Below, piece after piece: positions 22,781 through 33,251 of a stretch of 35,931 nt of DNA (position 1 is its first letter; every line of letters starts with the position of its first letter). The stretch comes from a virus (Duplodnaviria > Heunggongvirae > Uroviricota > Caudoviricetes). The position numbers and the translations under genes were made by a program. The stretch is taken from IMG/VR virus record IMGVR_UViG_3300029953_000013; one strand, given 5' to 3'. A model generated the notes under the pieces. The model did not search any database, was not told where the DNA came from, and saw only the letters and a program-made list of their open reading frames with translations.

Positions 22781-25700
22781 ATGGCTCAAGTAATTCAACT
22801 TCGGCATGACTATGCCGCAAACTGGACAACCTCTAACCCCGTTCTCGCTCAAGGCGAATTCGGGTATGAACTTGATTCAAAGCGCAATAAAGTCGGTGAT
22901 GGTGTAACGGCTTGGAGTGCATTGGGCTACTACGGCATCGGTAACACTGGTGCGCAGGGCGTAGCTGGCACTATCGCTGTCGGCACCGTAAACACACTTC
23001 CGTATAACCAGCCTGTAACGGTTGTAAACACTGGCACCGTCAACAACGCGATCCTCAACTTCTCCATTCCCCAGGGTCAAGCAGCTACGGGCGCGATTGG
23101 AACGGTAACAACCCTCGCCGCAGGATCGAACGCAACGGTTACGAACACTGGCACTCCCGGCGCTTCTATCTTCAATTTCGGTGTTCCACAGGGCATTCAA
23201 GGTATTCAGGGACCATCAGGAACGCTTGCCGTTGGAACCGTATCAACCCTTGCTCCTGGCGCAAGTGCGACTGTCACAAACACAGGAAACTCACAAGCGG
23301 CTTCGTTGAACTTCGGCATCCCTGCGGGTGCAGCAGCAACGATTACGGTAGGGACCGTAACCACAGGTGCAGCAAACTCTAGTGCCACTGTTTTGAACGG
23401 TGGGACTGCTGCTGCTGCAATCCTTAATTTCTGCATCCCGCAAGGTATTCAGGGCATCCAGGGACCGGCAGCAACGATTGCTGTAGGCACGGTTTCAAAC
23501 CTCGCTCCTGGTTCCGCCGCGACTGTGGTAAATGCTGGAACTTCACAAGCTGCATCCTTCAACTTCGGAATCCCCCAAGGGACCGCCGCAACCCTCGCAA
23601 TTGGGACGGTAAACACTGGTGCAGCTAACTCAAGCGCCACGGTGACGAATTCAGGGAATGCGAATGCCGCAGTTCTGAATTTCTCGATCCCGCAGGGCAT
23701 CCAGGGCATCCAAGGCATCGCTGCATCGCTTGCCGTTGGGACTGTCACAAACTTGGCTCCCGGCTCCAATGCGACTGTCGTAAACGCCGGAACCGCCCAG
23801 GTGGCTTCCCTCAACTTCGGCATCCCTCAGGGTGCAGCCGCTACCATCGGTGTAGGAACTGTATCGACTGGTGCAGCAGGTTCTAGCGCCACGGTAACAA
23901 ACGTTGGGACAGCAAACGCCGCTACGCTGAATTTCGCCATTCCTCAGGGCATTCAGGGCATTCAGGGCAACACCGGAACCGCCGCTACCATCGCGGTTGG
24001 GACTGTCACAACTCTTGCGGCGGGTGCAAGCGCAACCGTCACAAACGCTGGAACTGCTGGCGCGGCATCGTTCAACTTCGGGATTCCACAAGGTGCAGCG
24101 GCAACCATCGGGATTGGAACCACCACGACCGGGGCGGCTGGCTCAAGCGCGGTTGTGACGAATTCCGGGACTTCCGGCGCGGCTGTTTTGAACTTCACCG
24201 TTCCGCAGGGTCTTACTGGTTTGACCGGCACTGCTGCAACCATCGCCCTCGGCACCGTTACGACTGGTGCGCCAGGGTCTAGCGTCATCATGTCCAACTC
24301 CGGGACAAGTGGTGCGGCTGTGCTCAACTTCACCATCCCTCAGGGACTCACAGGCAATACAGGTGCCCCAGGTGGCGTTACAACCATCTTCGGCAGAAAT
24401 GGCGTTGTTGTAGCCGCATCAGGCGATTACACAGCCGCCCAGGTGGGCGCAGAAGCCGCTTTGGGGAACCCTTCTGTCTCGGGCTACTTGCTGTCTTCGA
24501 CCACAGCGGGTGTTCGTTCCTGGATCGCCGCCCCCGTAACGTTCAATCCCGCCGCCCCCGGTGCGATTGGCTCAACCACCCCGGCAGCAGGAACCTTCAC
24601 CACTTTTGGGCAAACCATTACTGCTGCTTCTGGTACGACCATTAGCACGCTTAATATCTCAACAGGAGCGAATTCTAGCTTTAAGTTCTTCGATACACAA
24701 ATTGGTGGTCAGAACCTCGGTTTGGCGTATTTCCAGTGGGCGCGTGGGGGTTCCCAGGACCGCTCTTTCTCGATCTTTACTAGCACCAGTGGTGGCGTTT
24801 CCAATCAAGCCTTGCTTTTGGATTCTTCTGGCAACACCACCATCAACAGCTTGAATGCAAGCACAGGCGCTTTCTCGGGAACCGTAACCGCACCTACCTT
24901 TTCCGGCACTCATTCTGGTTCCGGTGCAGGTCTGACAGCGAACACGGTTCCTATTGCCGCGCTTTCCTTCCCAGGCGGGTCAACTTTCCTCCGCGCTGAT
25001 GGAACTTGGCAGACGGTTAGCGTTAACTTGGCGGCTCCTGGTCCAATCGGTGGCACTACACCGTCTACAGGTGCATTCACCACCGGTATATTTTCCGGGC
25101 TGATCACCGCTTCCGCAGGCGTAAACCACACTGGCGTACCTTCATCTTGGGCACCAGGAACTATCGCTTATTCCGCTACCGGTGGTTTGGCTAATATTGC
25201 CAAGACAGGAACAAGCTATGACTGGTCGGTTTTGGATACATCGGCAACCCTGGCGTCAATAGGGGTTGTCACAGGAACCCATAATATCGCAATACCTAAC
25301 GGCAACTTGATTGTTTCGGGAGTTGTGCAGGTTACTGGCGGAGCTGGTGTAGCGGGGTCAATGTATTCAAACGCATCCCAGGGAATGGTCATTCAAGCAA
25401 AGGCTGGGTCATCTTTTGATTTCTGCTTGATCAATCCGGCAAACAGTGCCTACATTTTCAACGTTCCAACCGGAACCTCTAACGTAACCTTTTCGGGCAC
25501 AATTTCCGCTACTAACCACCTTGGTTCTGGAGCCGGGCTTACTGGAACCGCTGCTAGTTTGACTGCTGGTGCTGTGTCTAGCATCACGACTGCACAGGTT
25601 TGGAATGCGATTTCCAGTCAAAGCAACCCGGATTGGTATCGTAACTCTAACGGATTCTACTGCAACAACGGAACCGGGCTTCAGCCAAACGGCACACTGC

Positions 25701-26134
25701 TTTGCGTCATGTATAATGGCGGTTCTCTTCAGACCGTCAATCTTTACGCAACCGGAACTGTCGTGTCTGGATACTCAGATGGTCGGCTCAAGGACAACAT
25801 CAAGACCATTCAGAATGCAATGGGCATGGTTCGCGCAATGCGAGGTATCTCCTACCGGGCAAACGCTCTCGGGCAGTCATTCGGCTTCTCAAGTAAGGAA
25901 GAGCTTGGTGTGATCGCCCAGGAAGTTCAACTTGTAGCTCCCCAGGTGATCGGTTCCGCGCCGTTTGATGTCGGGCATAGGGATGATGGTTCAATCTTCT
26001 CCATCTCCGGGAACGATTACTTGACCGTGGATTACGAGCGGCTTGTTCCAATTTTGATCGAAGCCATCAAGGAATTGGAACTGCGCCTCGACATGCAATT
26101 GGGTGGTAACACATACAGTGTGGTAAAGGAATAA
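22781..26134 (+). CDS. Long tail fibre: Mtd_N/hyaluronidase-type N-terminal anchor, collagen-interrupted repeats, C-terminal Peptidase S74 intramolecular chaperone
   Basis: IQLRHD.AANW...NPVL..GE.GYE.D....KVGDG...W..L at the N-terminus; GIQGIQG triplets; YSDGRLKDNI...GVIAQEV...VDYERLVPILIEAIKEL at the C-terminus. Confidence 0.9.
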   Translation: MAQVIQLRHDYAANWTTSNPVLAQGEFGYELDSKRNKVGDGVTAWSALGYYGIGNTGAQGVAGTIAVGTVNTLPYNQPVTVVNTGTVNNAILNFSIPQGQAATGAIGTVTTLAAGSNATVTNTGTPGASIFNFGVPQGIQGIQGPSGTLAVGTVSTLAPGASATVTNTGNSQAASLNFGIPAGAAATITVGTVTTGAANSSATVLNGGTAAAAILNFCIPQGIQGIQGPAATIAVGTVSNLAPGSAATVVNAGTSQAASFNFGIPQGTAATLAIGTVNTGAANSSATVTNSGNANAAVLNFSIPQGIQGIQGIAASLAVGTVTNLAPGSNATVVNAGTAQVASLNFGIPQGAAATIGVGTVSTGAAGSSATVTNVGTANAATLNFAIPQGIQGIQGNTGTAATIAVGTVTTLAAGASATVTNAGTAGAASFNFGIPQGAAATIGIGTTTTGAAGSSAVVTNSGTSGAAVLNFTVPQGLTGLTGTAATIALGTVTTGAPGSSVIMSNSGTSGAAVLNFTIPQGLTGNTGAPGGVTTIFGRNGVVVAASGDYTAAQVGAEAALGNPSVSGYLLSSTTAGVRSWIAAPVTFNPAAPGAIGSTTPAAGTFTTFGQTITAASGTTISTLNISTGANSSFKFFDTQIGGQNLGLAYFQWARGGSQDRSFSIFTSTSGGVSNQALLLDSSGNTTINSLNASTGAFSGTVTAPTFSGTHSGSGAGLTANTVPIAALSFPGGSTFLRADGTWQTVSVNLAAPGPIGGTTPSTGAFTTGIFSGLITASAGVNHTGVPSSWAPGTIAYSATGGLANIAKTGTSYDWSVLDTSATLASIGVVTGTHNIAIPNGNLIVSGVVQVTGGAGVAGSMYSNASQGMVIQAKAGSSFDFCLINPANSAYIFNVPTGTSNVTFSGTISATNHLGSGAGLTGTAASLTAGAVSSITTAQVWNAISSQSNPDWYRNSNGFYCNNGTGLQPNGTLLCVMYNGGSLQTVNLYATGTVVSGYSDGRLKDNIKTIQNAMGMVRAMRGISYRANALGQSFGFSSKEELGVIAQEVQLVAPQVIGSAPFDVGHRDDGSIFSISGNDYLTVDYERLVPILIEAIKELELRLDMQLGGNTYSVVKE
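22970..24372 (+). repeat. Eleven coding repeats of ~36-39 aa (TI[AG]VGTV[TS]T..G..ATV.N.GT..AA.[LF]NF.IPQG) with collagen spacers
   Basis: Counted in the translation. Units alternate L-type and G-type, with a collagen triplet block after each pair. Confidence 0.9.
26102..26108 (+). promoter_or_regulatory. GGTGGTA motif 30 nt before start of next gene
   Basis: In the last codons of the fibre gene; a partial copy (GTGGTAA) follows at 26120. Confidence 0.35.
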
Positions 26135-26138
26135 TGAA

Positions 26139-26591
26139 ATGGCAAACTACAACGAAACCGCTGTCTCTGGTTCAATCTGGACTCGGGCGAAAGCTGTCCA
26201 AATCAATAACCCTGCCAATGGCACGCCCAGCATCACGTTTACGGAAGAGCAGGTTGTGGACTACAACAACACGCTCCTGTCCGGTGGGCAACCTTCGTTT
26301 GTGAGTGTCACATTCAACCCAGCGGCAGTGATTCCGATGATTGATCCGACTACGCAAACAGCAACCGGCGCGACTATGACGCAAGGGGATCTCTATGCCG
26401 CGCTCTACAGCCTGTATCTTCAGGTTGCGGCAGCGCGGGATGTCCAGGCTGCGGCTAACGCTGCTGCTTTCGCGGCGATCCCTGCTGCGGTTCCTGGGGC
26501 TATAACCACGGCTCCTTCGTCAACCATTCCGGCACCTTTGACAGTAACAATTCCTTCTCCTGCCCCTGCGGCGACAACTACAGGTTCCTAA
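26139..26591 (+). CDS. Tail-fibre-associated protein (possible fibre chaperone/adaptor)
   Basis: MANYNETAVSG..WTRA..V.I.NP.NG.PSITF.EE pattern of a kind I recall downstream of phage fibres; Pro/Ala/Thr tail. Confidence 0.5.
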   Translation: MANYNETAVSGSIWTRAKAVQINNPANGTPSITFTEEQVVDYNNTLLSGGQPSFVSVTFNPAAVIPMIDPTTQTATGATMTQGDLYAALYSLYLQVAAARDVQAAANAAAFAAIPAAVPGAITTAPSSTIPAPLTVTIPSPAPAATTTGS

Positions 26592-26594
26592 GCG

Positions 26595-27434
26595 ATGGCA
26601 TTCACTGTCAATGGCGTAGACTTGGATACCATCTTTGAACCCATTTGGACCGCCCCTGGTGCGGCTACAGGTTTCTATGATGGTGGGCAGGATCTTGCGA
26701 ACCGATATGAGAAACTTTCGTCAGGTCTACCATATTATGCAATTCCTTTCACACATAATGGGGTTGATCTAAATACCTTGTTTGCGGGCAAAGGGACTGT
26801 AGGCACAGCCATAACATCTATTTACGCCGGTAATTACGGAACGGTGACTTACACCGGTCCTTACACCGCTTATGACAGCAAAAATAATGCCTATACAGAA
26901 TGGACAACGATTCTATACACAGTGTATATAGCTGGAGTCTGTACCTATAATTCTACTACACCTTGGGTGTTCCCTTACGTCTACAATGGTAACACATACA
27001 CTGCCGTTTCTTCCGTAGTCAATGTGAATACTGCTTCAGAGATTCAATACACCTATGTGTTGGCGGATGCCATAAAGGAACCTAATACCACAATTCCGAA
27101 TGGATGGGTGTATGACCAGAACTATTGTTATTACCAGACTTTGCAGACTGGGGTTAGTTCAACAACGGATAAATCAGGCATAACATATTACTACGCCAGC
27201 ACAACCTACCGCTTAATTCGTGGTGGTGTAGTCATCTGGAGTTCAACCACCGCTCCAACTGTAACATATAGTGCCACTTATGGCTATTATGTTACGGTTG
27301 TTGTTGGTAGCGTTACTTATTACGCGCTTATATCAAGCGTTTCCTATACTACATGCGCAGTATACAATACCGGCTATGGAGCCGATCCATACGACCAACG
27401 GTTCGCCATATCTGTCGCCGTACCCGTTAACTAG
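26595..27434 (+). CDS. Tyr/Thr-rich putative adhesin/receptor-binding tip protein
   Basis: N-terminal triple motif NGVDLDTIF / GGQDLANRY / NGVDLNTLF, followed by a Y/T/V/S-rich beta region. Spot counts of two 60-nt lines give 35% and 40% GC. Confidence 0.55.
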   Translation: MAFTVNGVDLDTIFEPIWTAPGAATGFYDGGQDLANRYEKLSSGLPYYAIPFTHNGVDLNTLFAGKGTVGTAITSIYAGNYGTVTYTGPYTAYDSKNNAYTEWTTILYTVYIAGVCTYNSTTPWVFPYVYNGNTYTAVSSVVNVNTASEIQYTYVLADAIKEPNTTIPNGWVYDQNYCYYQTLQTGVSSTTDKSGITYYYASTTYRLIRGGVVIWSSTTAPTVTYSATYGYYVTVVVGSVTYYALISSVSYTTCAVYNTGYGADPYDQRFAISVAVPVN

Positions 27435-27443
27435 GAGCTTGAA

Positions 27444-28022
27444 ATGGATATCGTTCTTCTGAATGGTGGTGGTGTTGATTCTCTCGCCGCCGCCCTTATT
27501 TTGAAAAACAGTGGACACACCTTGCATAGCCTTCATGTGCAATTTGATTATCCAGCTTCAGCCAGTATGGTAGTTGCGGCTAAGGCAATTGCAGACGCGT
27601 ATTGCGCCGATCAGGTGGTAGTAACCGTAGCGGGGCTGGTTCCTTGGGGGATGAATGCACCAGAGGCAACACCCACAGGAAGGTATCGTTCCGTTCCCAA
27701 TCTTCAATTGGTGGTATCTGGAATAGCAGCGTCCTATGCTACTCGCAATGGGTATTCCTACATTGCCAATGGCGTGAAAAACCAGGAAGTTTGGGGCAAT
27801 GGGTTTGAACCCGCGATCTCAGCACTCATTGCCAATCACAACCATTCCCAGCTTAAACAACCTCTGCTGTTTATGCGCCCCCTCTCAGCGTTGGATGATG
27901 CGGCGGTCTACGCATTGGTGGCAGGTAATTCTGTCCTAAATCAAACTGTTTCATGCCTTTCCTCCCCTCCCTGCGGCACTTGTTTTAAGTGCCTCCTTCG
28001 TAAATCTCACAATCTCTCATAG
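27444..28022 (+). CDS. queC: QueC-family (7-cyano-7-deazaguanine synthase-like) PP-loop adenylating enzyme, divergent
   Basis: N-terminal GGGVDS PP-loop variant, VP..Q..GIAASYA...I.NG segment, RPL, and C-terminal Zn site SC-x5-CGTCFKC.LR; AGGAG RBS. Confidence 0.75.
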   Translation: MDIVLLNGGGVDSLAAALILKNSGHTLHSLHVQFDYPASASMVVAAKAIADAYCADQVVVTVAGLVPWGMNAPEATPTGRYRSVPNLQLVVSGIAASYATRNGYSYIANGVKNQEVWGNGFEPAISALIANHNHSQLKQPLLFMRPLSALDDAAVYALVAGNSVLNQTVSCLSSPPCGTCFKCLLRKSHNLS

Positions 28023-28030
28023 GATTCTTT

Positions 28031-28696
28031 GTGAAAAAATATACAATCGCCGCCCTCGCCGTCCTTGGGATGGCTCTCAGCATTCCAGTCCATGCAGAAG
28101 ATGCAAGGTGCCTTGTCAATGTATACAAGAGCAACGAGACTGGTTACGAGAACCGGATCAATGCTTTCCCCTATATCAAGGAAGGTGATCTTTGGTATTT
28201 CGGTGATCTCTCGGCGTATTCGTCCTCCAAAGAGCCGACCGTCATGGATCGCTACTCGGGGCTGTCCATGTTGGGCACCACGGCTTGGCACGGTTTCTCG
28301 GCTCGATACCAGAGCGAGGTATACGATACCAAGGCAACCATCGAAGTGAAGGGCAAGCCGAAGCTCAAGGAAACCTACTGGCGCGACAACCGAAACGGGG
28401 TCGCCTACGTGGGCGAAACAAAGCCCTTTGATGGCAAGCTGTGGGTCTGGAACGAAGCCATGGTCTTCAAGTGTGATCATGTGGACTACCGGTATGAGTA
28501 TACCGTCCGTGCCCGGTATGACCGATTCTGGCTCGACAATCAGTACTACTACGACACGACCGAAGGTAAGAAGGTCAACTACCGCGACAGGCTGATTTTC
28601 GCGTATGACCTTTCCAAGCGATTCAACGTGCAGTGGCGCAGTGAGTGGAAGTCCCATACCCGAATCAACTACGTGGGCGGGGGTATTCGCTTCTAA
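28031..28696 (+). CDS. Outer-membrane beta-barrel (porin-like) protein with Sec signal peptide
   Basis: Signal peptide MKKYTIAALAVLGMALSIPVHA, then ~11-12 amphipathic Y/W/R-rich strands and a C-terminal beta-signal NYVGGGIRF. Confidence 0.75.
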   Translation: MKKYTIAALAVLGMALSIPVHAEDARCLVNVYKSNETGYENRINAFPYIKEGDLWYFGDLSAYSSSKEPTVMDRYSGLSMLGTTAWHGFSARYQSEVYDTKATIEVKGKPKLKETYWRDNRNGVAYVGETKPFDGKLWVWNEAMVFKCDHVDYRYEYTVRARYDRFWLDNQYYYDTTEGKKVNYRDRLIFAYDLSKRFNVQWRSEWKSHTRINYVGGGIRF

Positions 28697-29331
28697 TGAA
28701 ACACTTTGATAAGTTCCATGTGCTTGTCTCGCTGTATAGCGCCCTGTTCATCTTCGCACCCATCTTGAGCGGCGGCAGGGACATCCTTCTGTGGGGCTTC
28801 CCGCTCATGCCGGGAACCCTGCTCAATTTCTTCAGCGTGTGCGTCATCACGCTTGTGCAGGACAACTACGGACCCGCTCACGCCAAGCAAATGGTTACGG
28901 GCGCGTTGATCACAAAGGTAGTCTTGTGGGGTATTGTGATGCTCACACTTCTACTTCCCGAAGCAGCCCGAACCCCAGGGTACGAAAAGGTTGTGTCCTC
29001 AGGGTTCCGGGTGGTGCTGGGTGGAGTGGTTGCTAAATACGTTGGCGGGATCGTATTCGACATCCCGGCTTTCCAGTGGATGAAGCAGCGCAAGAAGGGC
29101 TTCCACTTCGCGTTCCTGGCGGCTCTGACCCTTCATAACCTCATCGACCGTCCAATCTTCCTCATGATCGCCAAGTATGGAACTGGCGGAAAAATGTGGG
29201 ACCGATTCCTTATCCAAACCATGCTCGGCTTTGTCTTCATCCTCATCCTTACGCCGACTGTAACCATTCTCAACAAACTCCTGTTCAAGAAACAGGCTTT
29301 CATTCACCCAATCGAGGTAGCCAATGCTTAA
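28696..29331 (+). CDS. yhhQ: VUT/YhhQ-family (queuosine precursor transporter-like) inner-membrane protein, divergent
   Basis: About 6 hydrophobic helices with family landmarks G..L...(YG..AK)...R.V.G..A..VG...D...F...K...N.ID..IF..IA.YG. ATG 28696 overlaps the barrel stop (TAATG). Confidence 0.75.
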   Translation: MKHFDKFHVLVSLYSALFIFAPILSGGRDILLWGFPLMPGTLLNFFSVCVITLVQDNYGPAHAKQMVTGALITKVVLWGIVMLTLLLPEAARTPGYEKVVSSGFRVVLGGVVAKYVGGIVFDIPAFQWMKQRKKGFHFAFLAALTLHNLIDRPIFLMIAKYGTGGKMWDRFLIQTMLGFVFILILTPTVTILNKLLFKKQAFIHPIEVANA

Positions 29332-29728
29332 AGCAAAGAGCAAGCTTCAGACCTTCTTCATCCCGGATGATCGGTGGTTCACTCTTGCCCCCTACATCCA
29401 CTACCCATCACACTACACGGAAGCCGAAGCCGAACGCTTCACAACCGTCATCGCGCACGAATCCCAGCACATCAAGCAGCAGAGTGCAACCAACAAGTGG
29501 TGGTGGCTGCTGAAGTACTTTGTGGTTCCATCCTTCCGGTTGAGCCAGGAAGCCGAAGGCATCGCATGTGAACTGAATGCCCTGCCGGAAAGCGCACGGG
29601 CACAGGTGACTTCCGCCTATTGCAAGGACTTGTCTTCATCGGCTTATACCTGGGCTGCGTGGACCGAAGACGATGCCTTGGAAGCGATTCACGAAGCAGA
29701 GATCAGGCTTTTCAAGAAAACATTCTAA
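29324..29728 (+). CDS. Small zincin-like metallopeptidase-motif protein (HExxH + downstream E)
   Basis: VIAHESQHIKQQ followed by RLSQEAEG; overlaps the VUT gene end by 8 nt. Confidence 0.6.
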   Translation: MLKAKSKLQTFFIPDDRWFTLAPYIHYPSHYTEAEAERFTTVIAHESQHIKQQSATNKWWWLLKYFVVPSFRLSQEAEGIACELNALPESARAQVTSAYCKDLSSSAYTWAAWTEDDALEAIHEAEIRLFKKTF

Positions 29729-29729
29729 C

Positions 29730-29736
29730 GGTGGTA
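29730..29736 (+). promoter_or_regulatory. GGTGGTA junction motif (within GTGGT-ATTAA-ACCAC inverted repeat)
   Basis: Intergenic, 25 nt before ATG 29762 and upstream of an AAGGAG RBS. Confidence 0.5.
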
Positions 29737-29761
29737 TTAAACCACACAAGGAGAATACATC

Positions 29762-30136
29762 ATGTCAACAGCGACCTCAACCCCGGCAGTCAAGATCACC
29801 AATCATACCTGGACCAGCATCAATCTGTCCCGGTCACAGGGTAATCCCAATGATGCCGCAACCATTGCCATTGTCGGCAATCTCGCCCAGGCGGATAACG
29901 TCTACCTCGCGGATACGGCTACCAGCACCCCCTACCCCGTTCTGAACAACCAGAACCCTTCCCTGGAATACCTGGATGACGCCAAGCTGGCTGACGCTTC
30001 CATCTTCGGGGAAACCATCACTCGTGCTGATGGAACCAAGCTGACCGGTCTTCAGTACATCGATGCCGTTCTCAATGCGCATGTGGCTCCCGCCGCTGCT
30101 CCTGCTACCACAACCCCGGCTCCTGCCGCGAACTAA
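29762..30136 (+). CDS. Hypothetical protein
   Basis: Strong AAGGAG RBS, C-ending codon bias and a Pro/Ala/Thr tail. Confidence 0.7.
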   Translation: MSTATSTPAVKITNHTWTSINLSRSQGNPNDAATIAIVGNLAQADNVYLADTATSTPYPVLNNQNPSLEYLDDAKLADASIFGETITRADGTKLTGLQYIDAVLNAHVAPAAAPATTTPAPAAN

Positions 30137-30147
30137 GGGACATTCAA

Positions 30148-30417
30148 ATGTCATCCTATCTCATCGAACTGAACCCTCTCCAGCTTTCCTACCTGACCGA
30201 TCTCCTGGATCACAAGGATGCCGTAGCCGGTCCTCATGTCATGCACCACGCCGGGATTCGCACCCAGCTTGCCAGCCCTCAGGTTGCCAAGGATTTCGTG
30301 GAAAACCTGAAGGCGGCTGGCGTCACTGAGTATCTTCAGAAGCAGTCGCGTGCATCGGACGGGCAGAGTTTGCCCCCGGCAACCCCGCCTCAGGCTCCTG
30401 CGGCACTCCCTCAGTAA
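30148..30417 (+). CDS. Hypothetical protein
   Basis: AAGGGA RBS; 89 aa helical with a Pro/Ala tail; followed by a terminator. Confidence 0.65.
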   Translation: MSSYLIELNPLQLSYLTDLLDHKDAVAGPHVMHHAGIRTQLASPQVAKDFVENLKAAGVTEYLQKQSRASDGQSLPPATPPQAPAALPQ

Positions 30418-30438
30418 AACATCTTCGAGTTGCACTGC

Positions 30439-30472
30439 AACCCCGCTACTTCGGTAGTGGGGTTTTGTTTTT
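30439..30472 (+). terminator. Rho-independent terminator
   Basis: AACCCCGCTAC-TTCG-GTAGTGGGGTT stem with a C(UUCG)G tetraloop and one G-U pair, followed by TTGTTTTT. Confidence 0.9.
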
Positions 30473-30482
30473 GGAGTAAAAC

Positions 30483-33251
30483 GTGATCCAACCTTACGGG
30501 CTTGGTAATGATATGTCGCAAACCATTATCAATGGTGCGAATATTGCAACCGGGTCAGTCAATGCAGGTTCCATCAATTTGACTGGCAATGCACAGAGCG
30601 TGGTTTACGTTCTGAATGCCGCTAACGGTGGGTCTAGCTCCACAACTATTGATGGATTGTCAATCACCACAAACACGATTGGCGCATCCAAGATCATCGC
30701 CGGTTCAATCACTGCTGCAAAGCTTTCGATTGGACCGCAGTTTCAATTCATCTCCCAGGTAACGAATGGGCTTCCTCTGAATGTGAATTCGGATGGGAGC
30801 TTTTCGCGTTGGGGAAGTGGCGCTTCTCCCGCCACGATAAACCCGGCTGGCAACCCTACCGGTAATTACCTTGCGCAAGAAAACCCCACGGATGCACGCT
30901 GGTTTGCAGACCCAACCCGTTCATACCCAGCCGCGCAGAACGTCAAGGTGTACGCTGCTACCTTTGGCGGTGTCGGCGGAAGTAGTTCATCGTCTTGTGG
31001 ATTGTTTTTCAATCTTGCGAACGCCTTTGCTACAAGTGGTGGGCAGACAGGTATTCTTGTCTTCCGTACAGGCACCAGCCTTCAGATTTACGGTGTAACT
31101 GGCGTTAATGGCTACACCCAGCTTGGGACTAACTACGCAATTACGCCGAACAACACAGCGGATCGTATTCTTGTCCAGTATTACGGGAACCCGACAACCG
31201 CTGTGGGCAATGTGACTGTCACAGCCGGTGGCTCTGGATACACCCAAGGAACCCCTGTGACAGCCGTTGGCGGCACTGGCGCGGGTTTCACCGGCTACAT
31301 CAACGTGGCTGTTCCTGATGGGAACTACACAACAGGTCCGGTCGTTTCGGTGGAGATCACCAACGGCGGTTCTTACACAGTTCTTCCAACCAGCTTCACT
31401 ACCACTGGTGGCACCGGCTTTACCGCCAATACAAATACTGCCCTCAATCCTCGGATGCGGGTGTTCTTCAACGGTACAGAGATCAATCCAAGCGGCTTCA
31501 CTGATACGTTCCTGGGCACGTATGGTGGGCAGAAAGGCGGCTACTCTGGCTTCCTTCTGACGGACAGCACCGTGACGATCAACAGCATCATCATGGGCAA
31601 CCAGCCCACTCAAGTTGAGGATGGCGCGATCACGGCGCAGATGCTTAATTCGGCAAGCATCTTCACCAACCAGCTTGTGATTCAGGATGTTGTTGGCGGC
31701 ATTAACGCCAGTTCCACAACCATCAACGGCGGCAACATTGCTACCGGATCGATCACTGCTAACCATTTTGCTTCTGATTTCATCACTGGCGGCTTCATCA
31801 ACGGACAGTTCCTAAATATTTCGGGATTGCTCACCGTTGGAACCATGAATTCGGCTTTGGCGCAGAGCGGCAATTCTGTGATCAACACACTTCTTGGGAT
31901 CGGCAATGTAGTGACCGGTCCTAGCTCTGGTGTGCAATCACTTTCAAGCGCTGTCACCAATTCAAACGTTTTGAATAATATTCTCTCGAATGGGAACGTA
32001 GTAACCGGTCCTGGAACTGGAACACAGTCTCTCGCAAGCGCTGTCACAAATGCCACCGTGAACAACGCCATCTTGACAACCGGTAACGTGGTTACGGCTG
32101 GTAGCAGTGGCAGCGTTGCCCTTTCGGGCGCTCTTGCTGGGGCATTGAGCAGCAATACTGGCGCGGCTAATTCCTTCGTTGCGACATTGAACGCCTATGC
32201 GGGTCAGGGCGTTACCCAAATTTCTGGCGCGGGTCTTGCGACTGGTGCAGTAGCGGCAAACTGGCTTGCGACAAACAACGCTGTCATCGGGCAAACCCTT
32301 GCATCATATGGCTATGTTCCTTCTGCAAGTAACGGGGGTGTGCCTTCTGGATGGTGTTTGTATTCCCAAGGATACAGCGGCACGGATATCAACGGTGCGG
32401 GCACCTACGTGAACATGGAAATTGGAAACGGTGTAAACATCGCCGGTTTCAACGTTGGTTCTTTGATGCTTGCCAAGATTTACGCGCAGGACAATACAAC
32501 CGGCACGTATTACACCGTCTATGCCAATACTTCAGGCGGCAATTGGAGTTGGACCGCCCCGGTGCTTGGGCATAACTTGAGTTCACTTGTCTACAAGATT
32601 CGCATCAACATGTGCGGCGGTGGAGCCGGTGGTGGTACTGGCGCAGCATCGGGCTACGGTTACGGTGGTGGTGCTGGCGCGGCTGCATGTGTAGAACTGT
32701 TTGTCATGGGCGGAACTGTTCTAAGCGGAACTGTTGGGGGCGGTGGTGCTGGTGGGCATAACGTCACAACCGGTGCGTCTGGTGGTGCCACTACTCTCAA
32801 CGTTACCTCTTACAGCATGACCGGCATTACCATCCCAGGCACAGGCAGTTCATACGGGCTTTACCTCACTTGTGGTGGAGGTTCAGGAACTACCGGTGGT
32901 TCGGTTTCCGGGCTTTGCACCGCTAATGGTGGCGCGGCTGGCGTTTCGGTATTAGGGGTTGCTCCGGGTGGCTTCATTCGGTGGGCTGTCGGCGGCGCAG
33001 GTGGTGGAACCGCTGGTGCTGGTGGTTCCTGTAACGGTGTTCCTGGTGGAAACAGCTATGCCGGAAGCGGGGGTGGTGGGGGTGCCTCAGGGTTCGGTCC
33101 TGGCTTCAACTGCAATAGCGGTAACGGCAGCGGTGGCTCCTTCAACCCTCCCGGTAACACTGCTTCTCCTGGTGCTGGCGGTGGTGGTGGCGTCTACAAC
33201 TACACAGGCGGTAAAGGCTCTGATGGCTTCGTTTGTATTGAAATCATTTAA
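30483..33251 (+). CDS. Second tail fibre/adhesin with C-terminal glycine-rich (polyglycine II-type) domain
   Basis: GTG start with GGAG RBS. N-terminal TIINGANIATG/SITAAKL repeats resemble 21419..22780; there is a GGSGYT module. The C-terminus is CGGGAGGG...GGGAG...GG.G.DG[FV]V.IE. Confidence 0.8.
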   Translation: MIQPYGLGNDMSQTIINGANIATGSVNAGSINLTGNAQSVVYVLNAANGGSSSTTIDGLSITTNTIGASKIIAGSITAAKLSIGPQFQFISQVTNGLPLNVNSDGSFSRWGSGASPATINPAGNPTGNYLAQENPTDARWFADPTRSYPAAQNVKVYAATFGGVGGSSSSSCGLFFNLANAFATSGGQTGILVFRTGTSLQIYGVTGVNGYTQLGTNYAITPNNTADRILVQYYGNPTTAVGNVTVTAGGSGYTQGTPVTAVGGTGAGFTGYINVAVPDGNYTTGPVVSVEITNGGSYTVLPTSFTTTGGTGFTANTNTALNPRMRVFFNGTEINPSGFTDTFLGTYGGQKGGYSGFLLTDSTVTINSIIMGNQPTQVEDGAITAQMLNSASIFTNQLVIQDVVGGINASSTTINGGNIATGSITANHFASDFITGGFINGQFLNISGLLTVGTMNSALAQSGNSVINTLLGIGNVVTGPSSGVQSLSSAVTNSNVLNNILSNGNVVTGPGTGTQSLASAVTNATVNNAILTTGNVVTAGSSGSVALSGALAGALSSNTGAANSFVATLNAYAGQGVTQISGAGLATGAVAANWLATNNAVIGQTLASYGYVPSASNGGVPSGWCLYSQGYSGTDINGAGTYVNMEIGNGVNIAGFNVGSLMLAKIYAQDNTTGTYYTVYANTSGGNWSWTAPVLGHNLSSLVYKIRINMCGGGAGGGTGAASGYGYGGGAGAAACVELFVMGGTVLSGTVGGGGAGGHNVTTGASGGATTLNVTSYSMTGITIPGTGSSYGLYLTCGGGSGTTGGSVSGLCTANGGAAGVSVLGVAPGGFIRWAVGGAGGGTAGAGGSCNGVPGGNSYAGSGGGGGASGFGPGFNCNSGNGSGGSFNPPGNTASPGAGGGGGVYNYTGGKGSDGFVCIEII
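31873..32130 (+). repeat. Three ~29-aa coding repeats (N..L..GNVVT[GA].S.G.QSL.SAVTN)
   Basis: Seen in the translation of 30483..33251. Confidence 0.7.

Follow-up and report, generated by a model that had tools for sequence, protein, structure and literature searches.

Why would a phage carry genes for a QueC-like enzyme, an outer-membrane β-barrel and a YhhQ-type carrier in the midst of the genes for its receptor-binding fibers? The question is raised by four co-directional genes (here g1–g4) at positions 27444–29728 of a stretch of 35,931 nucleotides (nt; hereafter, the window) from an uncultured peat-bog phage. A preliminary description of this DNA had proposed a new four-gene system that handles 7-deazaguanines. 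We report that the enzyme and the carrier form a recurrent pair in phages, that the barrel was added in the clade of the window phage, and that the enzyme appears to be a remodeled member of the QueC family. Our preferred explanation—uptake across both membranes that supplies a 7-deazaguanine-type compound for ATP-dependent conversion—is put forward tentatively and is weighed below against its rivals.

Four tightly packed genes lie between fiber genes

All four genes lie on the plus strand and abut or overlap. The first, g1 (27444–28022; ATG start; 192 amino acids [aa]), is separated by an 8-nt gap (28023–28030) from g2 (28031–28696; GTG start; 221 aa); g2 and g3 (28696–29331; 211 aa) share a TAATG overlap, inside which lies the g3 ATG at 28696; and g3 overlaps g4 (29324–29728; 134 aa) by 8 nt. 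The coordinates and junctions of the preliminary description were thereby confirmed, as was the location of the genes between fibers: on the 5′ side, a 1117-aa fiber with Mtd_N and Peptidase_S74 domains (22781–26134) is followed by two fiber-like open reading frames (ORFs), and on the 3′ side lies a 922-aa glycine-rich fiber (30483–33251). The cassette equals its surroundings in GC content (52.2%, vs. 52.9% for the window), and contigs from four other peat runs contain it at ≥99% identity, with no deletion joints.

g1 belongs to a remodeled branch of the QueC family

The reading of g1 as QueC-like stands at the level of the family, since g1 matches the Pfam QueC family (PF06508) with 48.8 bits (E 7.9e-13; cut-off 22). 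Against the QueC equivalog model TIGR00364 (NCBIfam), it scores 33.9 bits, below the cut-off of 150.3. g1 carries a PP-loop (NGGGVDS) and a four-cysteine zinc site (C171-x5-C177-x2-C180-x2-C183), the first spacer of which is shorter than in the canonical C(x)8CxxCxxC arrangement. The catalytic signature of QueC consists of the motifs YxQxHxxE, VPxRN and YPDC, all retained in Cap9, and mutation of Y35, R99 or Y131 inactivates the Escherichia coli enzyme (PMC13329287, Libby et al. 2026). At the corresponding positions, g1 reads QFDYPASA, VPNLQ and GVKNQEVWGNGFEP. Because all three essential substrate motifs are missing and the equivalog score is this low, g1 does not look like a QueC that makes preQ0 from 7-carboxy-7-deazaguanine (CDG), and to that extent the preliminary reading was not supported.

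The same remodeling runs through the relatives of g1. An exhaustive HMMER search returned a family of 176 representatives, nearly all of them 176–200 aa long. Among the 60 closest, the PP-loop (SGGxDS) is kept in 54, the zinc-site CxxCxxC in 59 and a family-specific [YF]CxxH in 45; Y/FxQx5E and YxDC occur in none (0/60 each) and RN in four. Compared with solved structures, the family profile matched Cap9 best (9nto_B, 3.6e-18, over residues 13–190; Cap9 has 191 aa), followed by two QueC structures (2.6e-14 and 6.6e-13) and the QatC structure 9vlk (1.6e-4). PADLOC labels g1 'QueC', not QatC. Gat-QueC was set aside as an identity for g1, the PHROG match being at the level of the PP-loop only, and the longer QueC-like relatives that we examined contained no informative fusions. 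Nor is the g1 subfamily among the ten clusters of a 2026 survey of PF06508 (PMC13329287). By its motifs and length, g1 belongs to a distinct PF06508 subfamily of ~190 aa rather than canonical QueC, and thus looks like an active ATP pyrophosphatase with a rebuilt substrate pocket.

A predicted carrier and a predicted barrel accompany the enzyme

The g3 product matches Vut_1 (PF02592; 5.5e-16, 59.7 bits; cut-off 27.2) as well as the NCBIfam model for 'queuosine precursor transporter' (TIGR00697; 65.2 bits; cut-off 50.95), and falls into phrog_4899, the PHROG that also holds YhhQ of phage CAjan. It contains at least five hydrophobic 19-residue spans, which fits a polytopic inner-membrane protein. 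We assign g3 to the VUT/QPTR family (COG1738), with transport of queuosine precursors as its predicted function.

The barrel assignment of g2 comes from fold rather than family, as g2 has no match in Pfam (E up to 0.1; PF06178 and PF04338 included) or among the PHROGs. Its product begins with a signal peptide ending in ..VHA and finishes with the β-signal GGGIRF, and all 11 members of its family have a C-terminal aromatic residue (F, Y or W). An AF2 model built with 10 homologs from a profile search reached a pLDDT of 86.8 (34 only for a two-sequence model), and consists of one signal helix and 12 strands. All Foldseek matches of g2 in the PDB were outer-membrane barrels, with KdgM (4fqe; TM 0.53/0.65) and OmpL as the best size-matched ones; in the Atlas, g2 superposes on DUF481, DUF5020 and KdgM clusters (TM 0.76–0.79), one of them all-viral with 103 members. 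The likeness to KdgM/DUF481 is one of fold and language-model features only. As modeled, g2 is thus a secreted, 12-stranded outer-membrane barrel with a KdgM/DUF481-like fold. Membership in the Lom/Ail family was set aside, with no Pfam match and 12 strands rather than 8. A scan of viral contigs with the barrel alignment gave no match.

The enzyme–carrier pair recurs in other phages

Genes for a QueC-like enzyme, a barrel and a VUT carrier follow one another in this order in three different phages, the window phage included, at 31–51% identity and with unrelated flanking genes. In one of the other two (L037/L038), a g1 relative (51% identical) precedes homologs of g2 (47%), g3 (49%) and g4 (44%; HExxH kept), again after a Peptidase_S74 fiber and a small fiber-like ORF, and the other genes differ from those of the window phage. 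In the second (L046), homologs of g1 (42%), g2 (31%) and g3 (47%) stand in the order of the window behind a collagen/S74 fiber, and the g4 homolog lies 3 kb downstream, past a DUF1599-like gene and a dCMP deaminase gene. The segment between VUT and HExxH genes there (L046:5757-7943) encodes a 226-aa orphan, the weak DUF1599 match ('nucleotide modification associated domain 1', E 0.0023) and the deaminase, which hints at nucleotide metabolism. In six more loci, viral or metagenomic, the QueC-like gene is directly followed by VUT without a barrel (L039, L040, L041, L047, L050 and L053).

Our census of neighborhoods covered 12 distinct loci with enough flank, out of the 176-representative family, and in nine of them VUT is adjacent to the enzyme gene or one gene away. 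Since the same order recurs in two other phages amid unrelated flanks, the cassette looks like more than a chance assembly. The conserved, and presumably the functional, core is the g1–g3 pair, and the barrel is an add-on in the clade of the window phage; it was inserted between two coupled genes with their coupling kept, and we therefore argue that it works with them. The co-occurrence proposed in the preliminary description was thus borne out for enzyme, barrel and carrier. A four-gene system is an overstatement, because in L046 the HExxH gene is 3 kb away, and its family of small phage proteins is a widespread one.

In every locus, the enzyme gene lies beside genes of a receptor-binding type: S74 fibers in three, and in seven others, all without a barrel, a conserved large protein encoded by the next gene, the first ~300 aa of which resemble CBM96/DNRLRE carbohydrate-binding modules. 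These CBM96-like proteins follow the QueC-like gene with or without VUT (for example, L039:7188-9188, L040:7166-9427, L042:6546-8573, L050:1384-2811 and L051:664-1611). Searches of Pfam and the PHROGs with the large neighbors of g1 relatives, CBM96-like proteins among them, gave no matches, and tblastn with the latter found none in the window.

Cultured phages yielded no relatives of the cassette: tblastn with g1 and with g3 against 50,697 cultured phage records found none, and neither did megablast with positions 26000–31000. The QueC-like alignment, run as a single peptide pattern against 185,579 species genomes, was likewise without a match. In the literature that we searched, no g1–g3-type pair is described outside DpdA clusters, nor is a porin paired with a VUT carrier, in agreement with the preliminary description.

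No preQ0-synthesis genes or DpdA found in the sequence explored

By exact-protein look-ups outward from the window, we explored 113 kb of the phage genome (window −75.6 kb to +37.4 kb). The genome comprises at least ~140 kb, because the last contig on the left (L059, JGI contig Ga0311328_10000211; 57,388 bp) shows at least 26 kb beyond this range. The Pfam lists of all called genes contain no FolE, QueD, QueE or TGT, either in the window, as the preliminary description had noted, or across the 113 kb. These negatives carry no weight for DpdA, because the Pfam TGT model (PF01702) misses phage DpdA: both it and TIGR00432 fail on the known DpdA proteins of phages 9g and CAjan.

The DpdA families phrog_887 and phrog_7068 recovered these positive controls (2.3e-98 for CAjan; 1.2e-19 for 9g). 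Among the 25 best families for the 31 unassigned proteins of ≥150 aa in the explored 113 kb, no DpdA PHROG appeared (E < 3e-7). A complete relative (G001; 63,330 bp; terminal repeats [DTR]; 100% complete) carries the QueC-like and VUT pair and has no match to phrog_887 or phrog_7068, that is, no DpdA1, and none to TGT; the two PHROGs were also without a match in G002–G004, and PTPS and GTP cyclohydrolase I were missing from G001–G005. In the window phage, DpdA could lie in the at least 26 kb outside the explored range.

Loosely linked genes and transcription of the cassette

The fourth gene encodes a small HExxH protein resembling DUF4157/eCIS-core proteins. Its HESQH motif is conserved in the two homologs (L037, at 44% identity, and L046), and the three sequences share HExxH-x2-QQ, WW.LKY and SFRL..EAE. 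The match to Pfam eCIS_core (PF13699; 0.013, 16.1 bits) is below the cut-off of 22; in the Atlas, the g4 structure superposes on a DUF4157-named, largely viral cluster (TM 0.76) and on M56 peptidases (~0.5). Like that for g1, the preliminary calls for g2, g3 and g4 stand at family or fold level, and g4 is at most an accessory of the cassette. A fifth gene may travel with it: dn124 (29762–30136, plus strand), a 124-aa ORF of no known family, has a homolog in L046 that directly precedes the QueC-like gene (L046:3493-3900; tblastn, 27.5% identity over 120 aa, E 9.5e-06).

The motif GGTGGTA, of a phage promoter type, occurs 15 times in the window (3.3 expected). One plus-strand copy (26102–26108) lies 5′ of the two fiber-like ORFs between the S74 fiber and g1 (26139–27434, plus strand; up150, 150 aa, and up279, 279 aa, the latter matching phrog_11610 at 1.4e-05), which probably belong to the transcription unit of g1. 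Another (29730–29736, plus strand) starts 2 nt past the g4 stop codon, marking where the cassette unit ends and the next begins, and a strong intrinsic terminator with an 11-bp stem and a T tract follows the ORF dn89 (30439–30474, plus strand). A scan for sigma-70 promoters and terminators around the cassette found nothing above chance except this terminator. Transcription of the cassette-bearing unit probably starts at the GGTGGTA copy of 26102; given this copy, the one after g4 and the terminator at 30439, the cassette looks co-transcribed with the two fiber-like genes from a phage promoter, and looks unlike a self-contained sigma-70 moron.

Two more GGTGGTA copies lie inside the g1 coding sequence (27614–27620 and 27710–27716) and may be internal starts for g2–g4 or chance occurrences. 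The 922-aa fiber downstream is split into calls of 855 and 81 aa in one sample (L001:13040-15818), through strain variation or a frameshift.

The surrounding genome

To the left of the window, the explored sequence encodes a terminase, ClpP, a class II ribonucleotide reductase, a tRNA/tmRNA island, NAMPT, a phosphoribosyltransferase (PRTase), an RNA ligase and many orphans; to its right lies a DNA ligase gene. At least six contigs from different samples all end 100–200 nt past this ligase gene (L001:19783-19997; window ~+37.3 to +37.4 kb), and the shared stop points to a repeat or to the physical end of the genome. Clamp-loader and kinase PHROG matches were seen at the left edge of the 113 kb, no DNA polymerase was found in the sequence explored, and a scan of viral contigs with a protein from that edge gave no match. 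About 25–28 kb upstream of the window, an NAD-salvage set (NAMPT, PRTase and NADAR) is split by a gene for a GIY-YIG endonuclease (L029:8498-11700, L029:7968-8405), and a Band_7/SPFH protein and a DPBB protein are encoded nearby. Supply of queuosine (Q) for the tRNAs of the phage was set aside as a role for the cassette, tRNA-Asn being the sole Q substrate among its 11 tRNAs.

A proposed two-membrane uptake route and its rivals

What, then, might the cassette do? In our preferred explanation, to which we give somewhat less than an even chance, the phage would build an uptake route across both host membranes. Transcribed together with the fiber genes from the phage's own GGTGGTA-type promoter, g2 would provide the outer membrane of the host with a small channel of the KdgM/DUF481-like kind, and g3, of the YhhQ/QPTR type, would carry the compound across the inner membrane. 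With ATP, g1 would then adenylate the compound at a carboxyl or carbonyl group and hand the adenylated group to ammonia or another amine, for a downstream use that we leave unspecified. Adenylation followed by transfer to ammonia or an amine is the chemistry of all PP-loop enzymes of this family. Our best guess for the cargo is a compound of the 7-deazaguanine type, because two queuosine-precursor families stand side by side and are translationally coupled in nine loci, and because yhhQ adjoins queC in CAjan. Families, folds, coupling and gene order are observed here; substrate class, direction of transport and chemistry are what we infer.

Several observations weigh against this explanation. 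None of the residues by which QueC and Cap9 are known to bind the deazaguanine substrate is present in g1, so the substrate of g1 may be other than CDG or no deazaguanine at all. g3 clears the TIGR00697 equivalog cut-off modestly, and the VUT family has few characterized members. Uncultured phages commonly encode DUF481-like barrels in other settings. No VUT adjoins the more distant QueC-like genes (L042/L043/L054, L051/L049 and L044), and Vut_1 is missing altogether from the complete genome G003; evidently, the enzyme does not need the carrier in order to function. Late co-transcription with fiber genes is odd for nutrient uptake in a lytic phage, and no consumer of the product was identified in the sequence explored.

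The nearest conventional role would be salvage for DNA modification: preQ0 or one of its precursors would enter through the carrier and be completed by g1, and a DpdA from the unexplored part of the genome would insert it into phage DNA as protection against restriction. CAjan has yhhQ beside queC within a folE–queD–queE–queC–dpdA cluster, some phages encode YhhQ, and phages with DpdA only exist (PMC6884629). The unexplored part of the genome probably also holds the replication genes, since clamp loaders appear at its edge, and the Pfam TGT model is blind to DpdA. We nevertheless regard this role as rather doubtful: g1 has lost residues that are essential in QueC (PMC13329287), no FolE, QueD or QueE was found to make CDG, the complete relative with the same pair matches neither DpdA PHROG, nor TGT, PTPS or GTP cyclohydrolase I, no DpdA PHROG emerged from the larger unassigned proteins, and the cassette sits in a late fiber unit away from the genes of nucleotide metabolism. 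Given that substrate residues have been lost, that synthesis genes and, in the complete relative, DpdA were not found, and that the cassette lies in the fiber module, it is probably not the canonical phage preQ0/DpdA pathway. In the manner of Cap9 or QatC, g1 might instead activate a deazaguanine carboxylate, imported or made by the host, and ligate it at the amino terminus to a phage or host protein, perhaps to a neighboring receptor-binding protein. Cap9 is the best solved match of the g1 family, ahead of QueC, and shares its minimal size; QatC has lost the canonical motifs and yet deazaguanylates a protein (PMC13329287, PMC13279940); and fiber or receptor-binding genes adjoin the enzyme in every locus. 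Modification of a protein is unlikely all the same, as no CD-NTase, Cap10/TGT-like, QatA, QatB or QatD partner accompanies g1, the YxDC and RN motifs kept in Cap9 are missing from the g1 family, no neighbor has a glycine-rich free N-terminus as in CdnD, and the adjoining small-molecule carrier fits the conversion of a metabolite equally well.

The genes might also form no system at all, but be independent accessories in a variable fiber region, the barrel serving exclusion or receptor masking (Lom-/Llp-type) and g1 amidating a surface sugar like the PF06508 member WbpG. Fiber regions are known sites of accessory genes, the barrel is missing from most relatives and g4 is displaced in L046, phages often carry a DUF481-like barrel or a DUF4157-like protein on its own, and WbpG-type sugar amidotransferases do occur within PF06508 (PMC13329287). 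Set against this are the overlapping start and stop codons, the g1–g2–g3 order kept at 31–51% identity in three phage backgrounds, the g1–g3 pair kept in six more loci, and the presence, hardly an accident, of two neighboring families that both point to 7-deazaguanines; we consider independent accessories quite improbable. Counter-defense, the other outcome envisaged in the preliminary description, would have the cassette remove or divert host CDG or preQ0 so that the type IV cyclic-oligonucleotide-based antiphage signaling system (CBASS), QatABCD and Dpd stay unarmed. These systems do need host CDG or preQ0 (bioRxiv 10.1101/2025.04.06.647259; PMC13329287), and a QueC-family enzyme with membrane carriers and no visible consumer would suit such a drain. 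But g1 lacks the known CDG-binding residues, characterized VUT proteins are importers, and late expression would come too late against an early-acting defense, so that we judge this outcome very unlikely. A bolder reading, to which we attach little credence at present, is that g1 performs a new 7-deazapurine reaction: it might attach a deazaguanine-type base, once imported, to an envelope component or to a receptor-binding protein of the virion, a deazaguanylation on the side of the phage, or make a new deazapurine metabolite, with the two-membrane import as its supply. Such a reaction, fed by phage-built import, would explain why g1 is always found beside receptor-binding genes and never beside DpdA.

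Comparison with known systems

In the conflict between phages and bacteria, 7-deazaguanines have two known uses: phages put them into their DNA through DpdA against restriction, and bacteria put them on proteins through Cap9 or QatC for immunity. The cassette fits neither. It combines a rebuilt QueC-family enzyme with an importer, and here with an outer-membrane channel, in a receptor-binding module, and no transglycosylase was detected in the complete relative. If the g1 substrate were identified, more would be known of the chemistry open to the QueC fold and of the use that uncultured soil phages make of scavenged queuosine precursors.

With canonical QueC (EC 6.3.4.20), g1 shares PF06508 membership, a PP-loop of the SGGxDS type, the four-cysteine zinc site and a conserved histidine after the first helix; it differs in being ~30–40 residues shorter, in missing the motifs YxQxHxxE, RN and YPDC, and in having no queD or queE neighbors. 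Cap9 of type IV CBASS (PDB 9NTO, chain B; bioRxiv 10.1101/2025.04.06.647259) is closer in build, with the same minimal QueC fold of ~190 aa, PP-loop and C-terminal zinc ribbon. However, Cap9 keeps Y/FxQx5E, RN and Hx4YxDCxxxF (PMC13329287), whereas g1 and its 60 closest relatives lack the first and the YxDC of the third, with RN in the four relatives counted above. The neighbors of g1 belong to no CD-NTase or Cap10 Pfam family, and g1 itself is phage-borne, part of a fiber operon and paired with a transporter. QatC of QatABCD is more distant, with ~400 aa, N- and C-terminal extensions and qatA, qatB and qatD as neighbors, whereas g1 has 192 aa and none of these.

For g4, the likeness is to small phage DUF4157/eCIS-core-like proteins and to the core of M56/M48 peptidases, with which it shares HExxH, a conserved glutamate downstream (EAE) and, with the former, a length of 130–145 aa; its Pfam score is under the cut-off, its linkage to the cassette is loose and a peptidase role is only predicted. 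For g2, it is to the KdgM/NanC/OmpL and DUF481/DUF5020 barrels (PDB 4FQE, 4PR7), in the signal peptide, 12 antiparallel strands, terminal aromatic residue and ~200 mature residues (TM 0.53–0.79). Unlike these, g2 is not a member by sequence (7–13% identity in the fold matches), its channel role is predicted, and its gene sits in a phage, between those for an enzyme and a carrier.

The closest precedent for the pair is Escherichia phage CAjan (KP064094; PMC7544227), in which a gene for a YhhQ-type carrier (phrog_4899) adjoins a QueC-family gene as in the cassette. CAjan has a full-length, canonical QueC (phrog_1550, 1.6e-80) together with folE, queD, queE and dpdA in its replication region, whereas in the window phage folE, queD, queE and dpdA were not found in the 113 kb explored, the enzyme appears remodeled, the setting is a fiber module, and an outer-membrane barrel has been inserted. 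This insertion between enzyme and carrier is what is new within 7-deazaguanine biology, and the pairing of a phage-encoded outer-membrane channel, as predicted here, with a carrier of the inner membrane would, taken by itself, already be an unusual auxiliary device for uptake.

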